Positions 1,329 to 6,440 are shown, counted from the stretch's first letter. The stretch is DNA of 64,000 bases from a virus (IMGVR_UViG_3300025727_000782:1-64000), one strand, 5' to 3'. Notes: generated by a model not told the origin, from the sequence alone. Numbers and translations: made by a program.

Positions 1329-1496
1329 ATGGATAAAGATTTAACAAAAAAATCTGATTTTGAATCAATAGAAAAATTCATAACAGATGTTAAGAGTATT
1401 GATATATTAAAAAGAGAGTTAGCTAAAACACCGATTGATTATGATAACATCGGGCCAATACCAAAAAAAAGATTTGAAAGAAAAACTAAAAAATGA
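1329..1496 (+). CDS. Hypothetical protein (55 aa), ATGA-coupled to the ORF at 1493
   Basis: Read by hand: MDKDLTKKSDFESIEKF...RKTKK*; its TGA overlaps the next ATG. Confidence 0.5.
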   Translation: MDKDLTKKSDFESIEKFITDVKSIDILKRELAKTPIDYDNIGPIPKKRFERKTKK

Positions 1497-1624
1497 TTTC
1501 TAAAGATAATTTAAAAAACAAATTAGAAAAATTGGAGTTGTTAATTGATAAGACTCAACCTGATGAATCAGATAAAGAACAATTATTTCAACAACATCAA
1601 ATAGATAATTGTGATAACGGTTAG
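1493..1624 (+). pseudogene. 5' part (42 codons) of a resident phage gene interrupted by the cassette array
   Basis: ATG 1493 reads MISKDNLKNKLEKLELL...QIDNCDN; the AAC at 1616-1618 is in frame and joins in frame to ATT at 4614. Confidence 0.7.
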
Positions 1625-1750
1625 TATATGAGTAGTGGCAGATAGAAAGCACCTACTTATCGTAAAGCAAAAAGTGAATAGATAAACAGAAACTTAAAAT
1701 TAAACAATAACCTGCCATTACTTATATACATTGTTATATACTGTATTGGC
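1612..1750. repeat. attC-like site 1
   Basis: TGATAAC-ggtta-GTATATGAGTAGTGGCAG (1624-1641) ... CTGCCATTACTTATATAC (1712-1729)-att-GTTATATACTGTATTGGC; 18-bp stem with two G.T pairs on the + strand. Confidence 0.8.
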
Positions 1751-1769
1751 GACTTAAAAAGCACAGACC

Positions 1770-2360
1770 TTGAAAAAATACAATATAATTTATGCAGACC
1801 CTGCTTGGAAGTTTGGAAGTAGATTAGCGAATGGAAATGATAAAAACGGAATAGTAAATTTAAAGCAAGTTAAAATTGGTGATAATTATACCGTAATGAC
1901 AACCGATGAAATTTGCAAAATGCCTGTAAAAAATATGACTGCTGATGATGCTATTCTTTTTTTATGGACAACCGATGCTCACTTGGAAGAAGCAATGAAA
2001 GTAATAAACGCTTGGGGTTTTAAATATAAAACGATTGGTTTTACTTGGTTAAAAAAAGAAAAAAGTGGTGTTCAAAGTTGCTATGTAGGTTTTTGGACGA
2101 CTAAATGTGGCGAAATATGTCTATTAGCAACAAAAGGCAAAATGAGTAAATATTTAAAAAAACGAAATGTAAGGCAATTAGTAGAAGCGGTAAGAGGTAG
2201 GCATTCTGAAAAACCAAACGAAGTAAGAAAAAGAATAGTTGAAATGTTTGGAAATGATATTCCAAAAACAGAACTATTTGCAAGAGAAAATTTTGACGGT
2301 TGGGATGCGTGGGGCAATGAAGTTGAAGACAGTATAGACCTAAGCCAATATTGTATATAA
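1770..2360 (+). CDS. MT-A70 family N6-adenine methyltransferase
   Basis: IIYADPAW (DPPW-like motif IV), LFLWTT, AWGFKYKT, HSEKP, ELFAR, GWDAWGNE; TTG start uncertain. Confidence 0.9.
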   Translation: MKKYNIIYADPAWKFGSRLANGNDKNGIVNLKQVKIGDNYTVMTTDEICKMPVKNMTADDAILFLWTTDAHLEEAMKVINAWGFKYKTIGFTWLKKEKSGVQSCYVGFWTTKCGEICLLATKGKMSKYLKKRNVRQLVEAVRGRHSEKPNEVRKRIVEMFGNDIPKTELFARENFDGWDAWGNEVEDSIDLSQYCI

Positions 2361-2497
2361 CGGAATGCAAATAAGAACAGTAAAATTATGAAAGAAAAAA
2401 TATTAAAAATAGCTGACAAATTACGCAACAATGAAATAACAACAGAGGATGCAGAAACCCTTTTATTGTTTTTATTTGGTGTTGTACACTGTATTGC
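2344..2497. repeat. attC-like site 2
   Basis: GCCAATATTGTATATAAC-ggaatg-CAAATAAGAACAGTAAAA (2368-2385) ... TTTTATTGTTTTTATTTG (2461-2478)-gt-GTTGTACACTGTATTGC; two G.T pairs on the + strand. Confidence 0.8.
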
Positions 2498-2507
2498 GAT
2501 TAAATAA
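2388..2507 (+). CDS. 39-aa ORF encoded inside attC-like site 2
   Basis: MKEKILKIADKLRNNEITTEDAETLLLFLFGVVHCIAIK*, starts in the hairpin loop after an A-rich leader and reads through the GTT at 2481. Confidence 0.45.
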   Translation: MKEKILKIADKLRNNEITTEDAETLLLFLFGVVHCIAIK

Positions 2508-2524
2508 ACTAAAACTTTAATTAA

Positions 2525-3568
2525 ATGACGAAACATAGTAATAATATTTTTTTGAGCGATGGCAAAATGGCTGACGATAGGAAGACAAATAACCTATTGT
2601 GGTTTGGTAACTGCTTGGAAGAAATGAAACGAATACCAAGTAAAAGTATTGACCTTATTTGTTGTGATTTACCTTATGGAACGACTGCTTGTAGTTGGGA
2701 TACAATAATACCATTTGAAAAACTTTGGAAAGAGTACAAGCGAATTATAAAAGATAAAGGTGTTATAGTATTATTTGGTTCTGAACCATTCTCTACGCTT
2801 TTAAGAGCAAGTAATTTGGATTGGTATAAATACGATTGGATTTGGGAAAAGAATAATGCAGGAAACTTTCAATTGGTAAATTACCAACCTTTAAAAGTAC
2901 ACGAAAATATTTCTGTATTTTACAATGAAACACCTAATCTTCAATTTTCTGAAATTATGAAAAGCAATATGGAACGACTTAACTTAAAACAAATTGACGT
3001 TTCAAGATTGCAATTATCTAAAAATGGGAACATAACAGGCTGGGTCGCAAATAAATTAAATGGTTCACAACTACCAACAAAAGAGCAATGGTTTAAAATA
3101 TGTGATTTATTTGGAATAGAGGATAATTATAATGAAATACTAAACTCTGTAAAAAGTGTTACTTACAACTTGGATTTACAAGATACAGATATTAAATGTA
3201 GTAATAAGGGGAAAGCAGGAAGTTTAGGTCATTTATCATCTGAAAGCAAAAGAGAAACTTATAACCAAACAAAAACAGGCTATCCAAAAAGTATATTAAA
3301 ATACAATAGAGAAAATGATTACCACACAACTCAAAAACCATTAGGATTGATAAAGTTTTTTATTGAAACTTACTCCAATAAAGGGGAAGTGGTTTTAGAT
3401 AACACTTGCGGAAGTGATACAACAGGAATAGCAAGTTTTGAACTTGGTAGAAATAGCATAAGTATTGAAAACGATTTAGATATTTACAAACTTGCTAAAA
3501 AAAGAAGGGAAGAAAAAAATATTATTGCGGTTGATATGCACGAAACTTTAATTGATGCACAGACGTAG
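2525..3568 (+). CDS. Beta-class N6A/N4C DNA methyltransferase with central HTH-like insert
   Basis: DLPY motif IV N-terminal, HTTQKP, VVLDNTCGSDTTG motif I C-terminal. Confidence 0.88.
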   Translation: MTKHSNNIFLSDGKMADDRKTNNLLWFGNCLEEMKRIPSKSIDLICCDLPYGTTACSWDTIIPFEKLWKEYKRIIKDKGVIVLFGSEPFSTLLRASNLDWYKYDWIWEKNNAGNFQLVNYQPLKVHENISVFYNETPNLQFSEIMKSNMERLNLKQIDVSRLQLSKNGNITGWVANKLNGSQLPTKEQWFKICDLFGIEDNYNEILNSVKSVTYNLDLQDTDIKCSNKGKAGSLGHLSSESKRETYNQTKTGYPKSILKYNRENDYHTTQKPLGLIKFFIETYSNKGEVVLDNTCGSDTTGIASFELGRNSISIENDLDIYKLAKKRREEKNIIAVDMHETLIDAQT

Positions 3569-3646
3569 CAATATTGTGTACAACGTTAAGGGTATGGTGT
3601 CGGTTGCTTTTCGCAACTGCACCATAACCATTGTTGTGCATAGTGC
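3568..3646. repeat. attC-like site 3
   Basis: GCAATATTGTGTACAAC-gttaa-GGGTATGGTGTCGGTTGC-ttttc-GCAACTGCACCATAACC-att-GTTGTGCATAGTGC; one bulged T, one G.T, one G/A mismatch. Confidence 0.85.
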
Positions 3647-3673
3647 GGATTATTAACAGAAAAACTAAATAGA

Positions 3674-4600
3674 ATGAAATTATACAAAGGAGATTGCTTG
3701 ATAGAAAGTGATAAAATAGAAAGTGGAAGCGTTGATTTAATATTAACTGATTTGCCTTATGGAACGGTTAAAGATATTAAAAATGTAAATCATGGAATGA
3801 GTGGAAAATGTGATTGGGATGTTGTAATTGACACAAACGAAATTTATAAAATAGCAAATAGAATATTGAGAAAGGATGGTAAAATCATTTTGTTTGCTCA
3901 ACAACCATTTACAAATGAATTAATAAATAAAGCTATTGAAAATATACCTTTTAATTATAGTATGATTTGGGAAAAAGACCACTTTGCAAATGCTTTGACT
4001 GCTAAGAAAGCACCTCTAAATTACTATGAAGATGTTTTAGTTTTTAGTAAAGACTATGAAAAGGGAAAAAATATAAAACCAACAAATCCTGTTTATGATT
4101 ATCTAAAAGGTTGCAAAATTGAAAGCGGAATAACTACAACTGAATTTAATTATAAATATTGTGAGTATTCAGGCAAAGAAAAAAACAAGCATAGAAGTTT
4201 GGTTGCAAGATATTGGGAAACATCACAATTTTTAGTACCTACAAAAGAAATATATGAAAACGTTTTGCAACCCACTGGATTTTTTAAATTACCTTATGAA
4301 GAAATGATAAAAATGAATACTTATAAAGGTTCTATTTTTAATTTATGGGAAGGTAAAAAATACAAAAGCAATATTTTAAAATACAAAAAAGATTATGATG
4401 GACACCACCCGACACAAAAGCCTATTTTATTGTTAGAAGATTTGATTAAAACCTTTAGTAATGAAAATGATTTAGTAGTGGATTTAACTATGGGTAGTGG
4501 AAGTACTGGTGTAGCTTGTAAAAACACCAATAGAGATTTTATAGGTATTGAGATGAATGATGAATACTATTATATTGCTTGTAAAAGAGTAGGATTGTAG
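3674..4600 (+). CDS. Beta-class N6A/N4C DNA methyltransferase
   Basis: ILTDLPY, HPTQKP, VVDLTMGSGSTG, FIGIE. Confidence 0.92.
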   Translation: MKLYKGDCLIESDKIESGSVDLILTDLPYGTVKDIKNVNHGMSGKCDWDVVIDTNEIYKIANRILRKDGKIILFAQQPFTNELINKAIENIPFNYSMIWEKDHFANALTAKKAPLNYYEDVLVFSKDYEKGKNIKPTNPVYDYLKGCKIESGITTTEFNYKYCEYSGKEKNKHRSLVARYWETSQFLVPTKEIYENVLQPTGFFKLPYEEMIKMNTYKGSIFNLWEGKKYKSNILKYKKDYDGHHPTQKPILLLEDLIKTFSNENDLVVDLTMGSGSTGVACKNTNRDFIGIEMNDEYYYIACKRVGL

Positions 4601-4604
4601 TATT

Positions 4605-4946
4605 ATGCACAACATTAGATATGTTGATAATTTAAAGAATCAGCTGAATTTAACTTTAGATGAAAGAGAACATTTAATTTACATCATGAGAACTTCAAAC
4701 AAAGTTTGGAAGATGAGAAATAAAATGTTAGATGGAGATTGGAACTTAGAAGATGTTAAGTTAGATGATATGGAAAAAGAATTAAGAACTCTTTTACCTA
4801 ATAATAAGATAGGTGCCATTAAACATTATAGACAAGTTATGATAGACGAATTTGGAAAACAAGTTTCTCTTAGAGATTCGAAAGAACGAATAGATAATCT
4901 CTGCAGAGAAATGACTTACGAACAAGGTTTAATAATAAACCACTAA
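4605..4946 (+). CDS. 3' part of the interrupted resident gene; C-terminus resembles the ribosomal L7/L12 C-terminal fold
   Basis: ATG lies inside the cassette arm (ATG CAC AAC); KIGAIKHYRQV...SLRDSKERID resembles the KIxAIKxxRx...LxEAKxxVD pattern. Confidence 0.55.
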   Translation: MHNIRYVDNLKNQLNLTLDEREHLIYIMRTSNKVWKMRNKMLDGDWNLEDVKLDDMEKELRTLLPNNKIGAIKHYRQVMIDEFGKQVSLRDSKERIDNLCREMTYEQGLIINH

Positions 4947-4962
4947 ACAAGGAGTACAGGTT

Positions 4963-5172
4963 ATGTATTTTGAAACACAAGTAATATTTACAGAAGAAAT
5001 CCCAACAAAGAATGGAGTACGAGAAAAGAAAACTCGTAGAGCATTTTTAGTTGAGTGTGATTCGGTAAGTGTAGCAGAGTCAAAGGTAAATGGATTGTTA
5101 AAAGATTCACCATATCCCTTTGAAGTTAAAGTAGCAAAAGAATCTAAGATTGTAGAGGTAATTGATGCCTAA
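4963..5172 (+). CDS. DUF4494-like small protein
   Basis: MYFETQV...KKTRRAFLVECDSVSVAESKV...ESKIVEV resembles DUF4494; AGGAG upstream. Confidence 0.55.
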   Translation: MYFETQVIFTEEIPTKNGVREKKTRRAFLVECDSVSVAESKVNGLLKDSPYPFEVKVAKESKIVEVIDA

Positions 5173-5367
5173 TTTAACATGGTTTTATTTCCATGTAGGA
5201 TTAGCACTGATAATAATAATAACTGATGCTAATGGAACATTAGAACCAGCGGTGAATAAATTTGAACAGAAGATTGGGTTATATACACCACCTGATACTA
5301 TTGATTCAACACCACCTTATTATATTGAACCAATAGAATCAGATTCAACAGACTGGAGAGTTTAGGT

Positions 5368-5586
5368 ATGGAGCATAAAATAGATGATTATAATAAAGGT
5401 TATTTAATTGGACTAATAATAGTAGCAGTTATTGGTGTTGCATTATTTTTCATACCATTTTGGGCCCTTTGGAATTGGCTAATGCCTTTATTTGGAGTAC
5501 CTAAAATAACACTTTTACAGAGTGTTGGGTTATATTTATTATTACGAATTATTTTCTTTCAGACTAATTATACTAACAAACAATAA
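5368..5586 (+). CDS. Small membrane protein
   Basis: Two hydrophobic segments, LWNWLMPLFGVPKITLLQ motif common in phage membrane proteins. Confidence 0.6.
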   Translation: MEHKIDDYNKGYLIGLIIVAVIGVALFFIPFWALWNWLMPLFGVPKITLLQSVGLYLLLRIIFFQTNYTNKQ

Positions 5587-6164: not shown

Positions 6165-6440
6165 CAACTAAGAGGAAATGAATGAAAAAAATAAGACATG
6201 GTAAATTACCAATTACATTAGAAAGTTCAGATGAATTAACACCTGATTTATTAGAAACAATACAATTGAATTTGATGTATGATAAAAAGAGAAAAGATAA
6301 TCACACTGGATGGGAATCCTGGAAAGATGAATATGGAAATTGGGTTAACCCGTACAAAGCGGATAAAAACCAATTAGAACTTTTCGAGAAAATAAAATGA
6401 TAAAAAAATTGATTTTAACAATGATAGGAGATATTTATCT

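Follow-up and report, generated by a model that had tools for sequence, protein, structure and literature searches.

The viral DNA IMGVR_UViG_3300025727_000782:1-64000, hereafter the window, carries at positions 1619-4613 an array of three DNA methyltransferase (MTase) genes, and it is very probable that this array consists of three site-specific cassettes of an integron-like system common to Bacteroidota and their phages. Our confidence is high that the cassettes are site-specific units exchanged at the triplet AAC, and moderate that a Xer-like enzyme is the agent of exchange. The array is a distinct variant of the integron principle, which has been published so far only in fragments. The window comprises the first 64 kb of a 77,466-bp IMG/VR record (G000, GC content of 32%) with a CheckV completeness of 27%; all statements on the absence of a recombinase from this phage cover this record, namely about 27% of the estimated genome. 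L and G numbers denote the compared contigs and genomes, whereas X11 and X12 are public sequencing runs.

Architecture of the three-methyltransferase array

Three co-oriented methyltransferase genes lie within window positions 1400-4900, each flanked by its own GTT...AAC inverted repeat, and all three arm pairs named in the original prediction, which had been made from the sequence alone, were confirmed. The arms of unit 1 (1733-1750 and 2344-2361, complementary at 16 of 18 positions) enclose MTase 1 of the MT-A70 family (1770-2360, TTG start; PF05063, 91 bits), and those of unit 2 (2481-2497 and 3568-3584, 15 of 17) enclose MTase 2 (2525-3568; N6_N4_Mtase, PF01555, 87 bits), which has relatives of 89-92% identity in L035 and L036. 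The arms of unit 3 (3633-3646 and 4600-4613) are complementary at 12 of 14 positions, and at all of them once G.T is allowed, and flank MTase 3 (3674-4600; N6_N4_Mtase, PF01555, 122 bits). All of these genes and arms are given on the + strand. Five of the six non-complementary arm positions are G.T on this strand, and arms 1 and 2 are near-identical in sequence. The arms begin with GTTATAT, GTTGTAC and GTTGTGC, corresponding to GTTRYRY. As had been predicted, each stop codon sits in or against a right arm: TAA 2358-2360 within right arm 1, TAG 3566-3568 touching arm 2 and TAG 4598-4600 touching arm 3.

Ahead of each gene unit lies a separate hairpin of the form AAC, 5-6 nt, stem...stem, 2-3 nt, GTT, which folds as originally described and in all three cases is more stable on the + than on the - strand. 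Hairpin 0 (1619-1732, +), the attC-like inner part of cassette 1, is composed of AAC/GGTTA, an 18-bp stem GTATATGAG...CTTATATAC with a long loop, and ATT/GTT. Hairpin 1 (2362-2480, +) has AAC/GGAATG, an 18-bp stem with a 75-nt loop, and GT/GTT, and hairpin 2 (3585-3632, +), which has a homologous hairpin in L140, has AAC/GTTAAG, the stem GGTATGGTG...CACCATAACC and ATT/GTT. In the folds, hairpin 2 has a single bulged A, whereas hairpins 0 and 1 have no such base; a conserved G.T wobble and an asymmetric bubble are present instead. A 39-codon open reading frame (ORF) at 2388-2507 (+) starts in the loop of hairpin 1 and crosses left arm 2; it matches no Pfam family and may not be a gene. Hairpin and gene unit together form cassettes of 743 bp (1619-2361), 1223 bp (2362-3584) and 1029 bp (3585-4613), lengths that agree with those first reported.

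In a genome this rich in AT, chance alone often yields a single inverted repeat as good as these; the significance of the array therefore rests on the combination of its features, and the observation as such is confirmed as real and far beyond chance. A simple hairpin scan of G000 revealed nothing above the shuffled background besides the array, nor a second array in the 77 kb; a looser scan for GTT...AAC repeats that allowed G.T was drowned in noise. An exact search of IMG/VR with the right-arm motif gave mostly chance single matches, and those in L014, L015 and L021 proved to be real cassettes. Two other interpretations of the elements were discarded. The right arms (TAGTATT..., CAATATT...) resemble the nick sites of CRESS-virus Rep proteins and relaxases, but the stop codon and the conserved A-T and G.T arm positions are part of this motif, and no HUH protein was found. 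A group I intron or intron-like insertion was rejected because the non-coding parts, of 48-119 nt, leave no room for a ribozyme core.

The array interrupts a phage gene at an AAC codon

The viral contigs L033 and L034, two close relatives, match the window on both flanks at 95-98% identity and are devoid of the block 1619-4613. Their empty site reads ...GATAAC/ATTAGATATG..., and a single ORF of 152 codons runs across it uninterrupted, which indicates that the block entered exactly at AAC. In the window, 2,995 bp (1619-4613) stand between this AAC and ATTAG, and the insert's own end is likewise AAC. The target-site AAC (1616-1618, +), aligned with the empty site, marks the left insert boundary with a 3-bp ambiguity and corresponds to codon 42 (Asn) of the 152-codon phage gene, both halves of which remain open frames. 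The N-terminal fragment (1493-1624, +, 43 codons) ends in ...C-D-N-G-stop, with its TAG at 1622-1624 supplied by the insert, whereas the C-terminal fragment (4605-4946, +, 113 codons) takes its ATG at 4605 from right arm 3, where cassette 3 and the insert end, and continues from the insert-derived M-H-N into I-R-Y-V-D-N-L-K like the intact gene. The right target half-site, ATTAG-ATATG... (4614-4628, +), resembles the left half of the hairpins, AAC/G-N4-TATATG, and in a small sample inspected by eye the right flanks of arrays elsewhere are often AAC/N4-6-TATA. The flank AAC/ATTAG-ATATG thus suggests a two-box target similar to attI. Given the 95-98% identity of the flanks to genomes without the array, its gain or precise loss was recent.

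The units might alternatively be small non-autonomous transposons, the arms being terminal inverted repeats served by a transposase in trans. Each gene does have inverted ends of 14-18 bp, and position 11 consistently sets the left ends apart from the right ends, as can occur in transposons. Nevertheless, we regard this explanation as scarcely credible. The insert defined by the empty site starts with the hairpin, 114 nt outside the first arm, and there is no target-site duplication at the insert ends beyond the shared AAC. Moreover, neither a DDE transposase nor, in the 77-kb record, a Y1 transposase is present, and the arms differ in nearly every unit (78 different 7-mers in the 87 units described below), which would be intolerable to a transposase that reads sequence.

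Recurrence of the cassettes in other genomes

Each of the three cassettes recurs in other genomes. Cassette 1, including its 114-nt hairpin, is found in G003, an unrelated complete 38-kb phage with terminal repeats, where it is placed after GCTAAC/ and followed by a different cassette. Compared to the window, the hairpin and left end are 91% identical, whereas the middle of the gene has diverged. Right arm 1, which closes cassette 1, has an identical counterpart in L014 and L480. Unit 2 occurs in five contexts (the window, L035, L046, L015 and L021), which are alike through ...GTGTACAAC and unlike from the following base, that is, directly after the AAC of the right arm that ends cassette 2; the same left arm is present in L035 and L046. 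Cassette 3 matches L140 over 3582-4613, from AAC to AAC. In L036, an MTase-3-like unit lies upstream of an MTase-2-like unit, the reverse of the order in the window. In addition, the match of one contig of run X12 ends exactly at 4613, and another contig of this run couples unit 3 to a different hairpin that ends in ...GCGTTTTAATGCACTTTATACG. The evidence from sequencing runs consists of the assembled contigs of four public runs, in which rare forms are not visible. Together with the empty site, the variation among relatives, with its breakpoints exactly at the AAC/GTT triplets, bears out the cassette interpretation first put forward. The contig comparison also showed two small skips (run X12) and an odd joint (X11), all with short sides.

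The hairpins belong to a family with covarying arms

More than 20 junctions compared by eye share the pattern YAAC/G, N3-5, a stem (G)TATATG(R), a variable loop that is often CGTTTTAATG, YATATAC and N2-3/GTTR. The pattern for one hairpin subtype is present in at least 120 IMG/VR contigs and in at least 120 bacterial contigs, the latter nearly all from Bacteroidota or other FCB-group bacteria. At loci derived from this pattern, 44% of the GTTR motifs after a hairpin have a matching AAC arm within 3.5 kb, compared to 5.4% of random GTTR motifs. Very short contigs and contig ends account for many of the bacterial matches, which would be expected if assemblies break at the repeats. Many of the family's short hairpins (e.g. 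L160 3645-3660 and 4553-4563; L021; L411-L479) are closed by a strongly conserved loop, TCGTTTTAATG, which is absent from the three in the window.

For the arms, 87 distinct units were compared. As these units were picked by pairing, their high pairing percentages are in part a product of the selection, and evidence is drawn only from the position-specific pattern and from the diversity. The paired arm box is 13 bp long, in which GTT/AAC is invariant and position 4 is R, whereas positions 5-9 are free in sequence yet paired, yielding 78 distinct 7-mers in the 87 units. An arm pairs at 6.5 of 7 positions with its own partner, against 2.6 of 7 with shuffled partners. Position 11 is G.T in 86% of the units, with the G always in the left arm, and position 12 is mostly T-A.

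We built a covariance model, R1, trained solely on 19 hairpins adjoining phage recombinase genes. On the + strand of the window, it recognized hairpin 2 with 37.3 bits, hairpin 0 with 26.1 bits and hairpin 1, the weakest match, with 17.3 bits (E-values of 6e-8, 4e-5 and 0.007, respectively, the last with filters off), compared to 7.1, 7.4 and 13.4 bits on the - strand at the three junctions; no further convincing match was found in the 64-kb window. The three sites had originally been described as sharing architecture but little sequence. The common architecture stands, whereas the second part does not, for arms 1 and 2 are nearly the same in sequence and a single covariance model accommodates all three hairpins. 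R1 also recovers the hairpins of Polaribacter phage P12002L, L021, L348 and L360. In phage loci, N6_N4 MTases are the commonest neighbours of the hairpins (43 loci). An array larger than that of the window, with about ten family hairpins and no recombinase, occupies positions 780-8110 of L021 (IMGVR_UViG_3300025654_000021), a 37-kb phage that is 98% complete.

A Xer-like recombinase accompanies the hairpins at a constant position relative to their polarity

When the ORFs around the hairpins were clustered, six bacterial loci proved to encode a tyrosine recombinase. Its gene (136-1125 in L348) stands first in a series of genes of the same direction, with a hairpin after each, in L348 (Aestuariivivens) and L360 (Robiginitalea), and a recombinase of the same type adjoins the bacterial array L308. 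The L348/L360-type recombinases score 243 and 229 bits against NF040815 ('XerA / integron integrase', cut-off 220), but match the integron-integrase model TIGR02249 only in two pieces and below the cut-off. Their alignment to VchIntIA (PDB 2A3V) skips residues 204-246, which correspond to the IntI-specific domain. The missing domain, an R box of 13 bp instead of 7 bp and the mirrored gene orientation described below bear out the initial guess that the sites form a distinct family. Relatives of the recombinase with 40-51% identity are encoded on at least 198 viral contigs (e.g. L411, 6001-6792), from which 80 loci were kept and analysed. Next to the hairpins of the bacterial loci L280-L399, in Bacteroidota chromosomes, the cargo met most often is a beta-lactamase-fold protein that has TPR repeats (23 loci), together with DUF6090 (17 loci); SDR and sulfatase genes also occur.

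In the 80 viral loci, 197 '+' hairpins but only 2 '-' hairpins fall into the 5 kb upstream of the recombinase genes, against a noise of 0.12 per 10 kb. The gene after a hairpin lies on the hairpin's strand in 80 viral cases and on the opposite strand in 1, whereas the corresponding numbers for bacterial loci are 4 and 98. Relative to hairpin polarity, viral and bacterial loci place the recombinase alike, whereas the direction of both the cargo and the recombinase gene is flipped; the conserved polarity is therefore a property of the DNA and not of a place in the transcript.

This polarity, together with the lack of T-runs, disfavors a role of the hairpins in RNA or as terminators. Signals for RNA processing, stability or termination, with modularity arising from ordinary phage recombination, would fit the co-oriented genes, the better folding of the + strand, and the arm mismatches, all but one of which are G.U-compatible on the sense strand. 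We nonetheless consider such signals a very improbable explanation, as the breakpoints are base-exact at AAC in many independent contexts, and the bacterial hairpins are antisense to their cargo (98:4) and keep their polarity relative to the recombinase gene rather than to transcription. Hairpins that behave as simple terminators had been named as evidence against cassettes; none of the three is followed by the T-run of an intrinsic terminator, and no Rfam family matches them.

A model for cassette exchange

Based on these findings, we propose a model in which each cassette consists of an attC-like hairpin, a left arm of 13-17 nt starting from GTT, one MTase gene and a complementary right arm running to AAC. 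Upon excision as a circle, the cassette's own arms would flank the hairpin, so that the + strand might fold into one long imperfect hairpin with an outer 'R box', an asymmetric bubble (5-6 versus 2-3 nt) and an inner 'L box' stem that contains a G.T wobble and TATATG/YATATA. Strands would then be cut and exchanged within AAC by a Xer-like tyrosine recombinase that lacks the IntI-specific domain, the partner site being another AAC followed by N4-6 and TATA; in the window, the target was codon 42 of the 152-codon gene. The enzyme might be provided by the host, by a co-infecting phage or by the missing 73% of the genome. The cargo, one MT-A70 and two N6/N4 MTases, most likely protects the phage DNA from host restriction.

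Several observations weigh against this model. Searches with PF00589, PF01797 and tblastn found no recombinase in the 77,466-bp record, consistent with the original prediction of no integrase nearby, and the complete phages G003 and G005 also carry arrays without a recombinase. The enzyme thus acts in trans, lies in the missing 73% of the genome or no longer acts, in which last case the array may be a fossil. Neither a circular cassette nor an excision joint was seen in the contigs of the four public runs, which miss rare forms. Furthermore, unit 2 stands behind unrelated hairpins in G000, L035 and L046, where similarity on the left side begins only about 2 bases ahead of the arm GTT. Hairpin and gene unit are therefore separable, and exchange also occurs at or near GTT, which a single crossover at AAC does not explain. 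The only published test of a family hairpin, that of P12002L_attC1 with IntI1, gave no verified recombinants, although it employed a classical integrase and not a Xer-like one (PMC9892861).

MTase homologues without arms had been named as evidence against cassettes, and one such homologue exists: gp028 of Cellulophaga phage phi10:1 (L002, KC821618, 3021-3980) shares 85% DNA identity with MTase 3 over window positions 3652-4051 and 4337-4591, has neither arms nor hairpin, and overlaps its neighbouring genes. The MTase 3 gene thus exists in a cassette and a non-cassette form, whereas each of the three cassettes recurs elsewhere as a unit. The coexistence of the two forms bears on how cassettes arise or decay. 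Altogether, the first reading of the array is supported, with amendments in three respects: hairpin and gene unit are separable, an armless MTase exists, and partial precedents are found in Qi et al. 2023 and Ross et al. 2019.

It is also conceivable, though rather unlikely, that the array was inserted once by an integron-like mechanism and is now a fixed passenger in this lineage, which would account for the 77-kb record without a recombinase, for the poor fit of hairpin 1 to the family model (17.3 bits) and the ORF in its loop, and for the lack of excision joints in the contigs of the four runs. However, the flanks are 95-98% identical to those of array-free genomes, so that gain or precise loss was recent, and the arms are still 86-89% complementary. 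In addition, 73% of the genome is unseen, and rare excision products are invisible in contigs.

Cassettes exchanged at AAC differ from the common view, in which integrons are bacterial devices and phages gain accessory genes by illegitimate or homologous recombination. The evidence here is base-precise that a virulent-type marine phage gained three different MTases as discrete cassettes, and the site family is abundant in Bacteroidota chromosomes and in hundreds of viral contigs, beside a recombinase that standard integron finders would reject. If this recombinase acts on the sites, the pair would represent a second, structurally simpler branch of folded-DNA cassette recombination, explain how phages of a major ocean phylum keep pace with host restriction, and offer a compact site/enzyme pair for DNA engineering. 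We further lean, with some reserve, towards the idea that marine Bacteroidota phages run their own mirror-image relative of the integron, with a compact Xer-like enzyme that lacks the IntI domain and acts on folded hairpin sites of covarying 13-bp box and fixed G.T wobble, and with a pool of mainly MTases apart from that of the host arrays, whose genes point in the opposite direction. Arrays without a recombinase would then be satellites, serviced in trans and able to land in phage genes without destroying both halves.

Other features around the array

A Cpn10/GroES co-chaperonin gene (969-1268, +; PF00166, 90.7 bits) lies about 350 bp upstream of the array, and fits a large phage, as the 77-kb record is only 27% of the genome according to CheckV. 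Downstream of the array, the window encodes a full-length phage tmRNA (5757-6167, +; Rfam RF00023, 75.5 bits); ARAGORN found no tRNA and also missed this tmRNA. Besides the array, window positions 5048-5422 and 6168-6401 differ by indels from L033 (5126-5915 and 6660-8375, respectively), and neither indel displays the AAC/GTT hairpin architecture by eye. About 208 bp inside a DUF4494-like ORF are absent from L033 and present in L034, and a segment replaced between the window and its relatives comes after the common sequence GGGTTATATACA. Both L033 and L034 carry about 1.7 kb of additional DNA directly past the tmRNA gene.

Comparison with known systems

The array shares its logic with the classical integrons (IntI, attI and attC; class 1 and Vibrio cholerae), which likewise comprise tandem single-gene cassettes. 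Similar to classical attC sites, the site is an imperfect palindrome in which the R box AAC/GTT is accompanied by an unpaired bubble at the centre and by an inner stem with a variable loop. In both systems, the crossover falls in a conserved triplet, so that each cassette's own ends are complementary, structure is kept while sequence varies, and the recombinase is a tyrosine recombinase of the Xer clade. The outer triplets AAC...GTT are found at all three window junctions, and the breaks occur at AAC at the insert boundary and in four more contexts. The attC logic of the original prediction therefore holds for the AAC/GTT triplets and own-end complementarity, but not for the core RYYYAAC/GTTRRRY, as the window arms are GTTRYRY and only GTT and R at position 4 are conserved among the 87 units.

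Despite this resemblance, the two systems differ in several respects. The IntI-specific domain is missing from the recombinase beside the hairpin family, the R box measures 13 bp rather than 7 bp and has a fixed G.T wobble, and the hairpin family has no clear pair of extrahelical bases. The classical order, gene and then attC with the recombinogenic strand opposite, is found neither in the window nor in 80 of the 81 scorable viral cases, whereas the bacterial loci follow it by 98:4. In phages, the sense strand has the hairpin first and then its gene, and the array is succeeded by a recombinase gene in the same orientation. The window array itself has no recombinase and is seated inside a gene instead of at attI.

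Classical cassettes might still have been moved by a canonical IntI of the host and deposited in the phage as a CALIN, that is, a cluster of two or more attC-type sites within 4 kb that has no integrase nearby. The three sites of the array lie within 2 kb of one another, and accord with this definition when detected with R1 rather than with the IntegronFinder model. Integrons are known from Bacteroidota in the literature, the triplets, the bubbled imperfect palindrome and the own-end complementarity follow the classical logic, and an equivalent array in P12002L was called a CALIN by attC prediction (Qi et al. 2023). We find such an origin improbable in view of the array-adjacent recombinase without the IntI-specific domain, the conservation limited to GTTR/YAAC (GTTRYRY and not GTTRRRY in the window), the 13-bp paired box with its fixed G.T wobble, the two extrahelical bases not evident in the folds and the reversed gene orientation in phages (80:1 versus 4:98). 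Moreover, P12002L_attC1, a true member of the hairpin family, was the sole site of six that IntI1 did not verifiably recombine.

Two further Xer-dependent systems are similar in part. The pdif/Xer modules of Acinetobacter plasmids are, as here, gene modules between inversely oriented Xer-type sites, and in CTX phage the host XerCD acts on a folded single-stranded phage site. Both differ from the present array in their dif-like 28-bp sites of fixed sequence, with neither cassette-specific covarying arms nor a separate hairpin.

A closely related published array is that of Polaribacter phage P12002L, a virulent phage reported to contain a 'CALIN' with two methyltransferase cassettes on the basis of attC prediction with HattCI and HattCI+INFERNAL (Qi et al. 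2023, Front Microbiol 14:1091391, PMC9892861). It shares with the window the hairpin family and the architecture, and its MTase array likewise lies in a marine flavobacterial phage that is virulent and has no integrase. Positions 2300-5350 of its genome (L160, NC_028924) harbor at least three family hairpins (2305-2366, 3631-3680 and 4530-4581) and four arm-bounded units, three of which are methyltransferases, compared to a published count of two attC sites. P12002L_attC1, predicted by HattCI and the only one of six sites without verified IntI1 recombinants (PMC9892861), has a primer sequence that is exactly the family hairpin between gp36 and gp35 (4527-4583; R1, 50.8 bits), whereas attC2, which recombines, is made up of the last right arm and the DNA downstream of it, read on the opposite strand. 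Qi et al. treated the sites as canonical attCs, and reported no empty site, arm covariation or link to a Xer-like recombinase; within the literature library searched here, no paper on phage-encoded arrays with a Xer-like enzyme was found.

In bacteria, a related arrangement is rAID-1 (recombinase-associated acquired interbacterial defence) of Bacteroidales, in which a XerD-like recombinase is followed by co-directional low-GC genes with intergenic repeats 'reminiscent of integrons' (Ross et al. 2019; 10.1101/471110). The window array has the family hairpins, on the + strand only, whereas no end-of-array Xer-like recombinase gene is present in the 77 kb. In the flavobacterial arrays L348 and L360, the layout is that of rAID-1, as compared by its description only (10.1101/471110). 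Despite this similar layout, rAID-1 carries toxin-immunity genes in bacteria, whereas the array described here carries methyltransferases in a phage, with reversed gene orientation.

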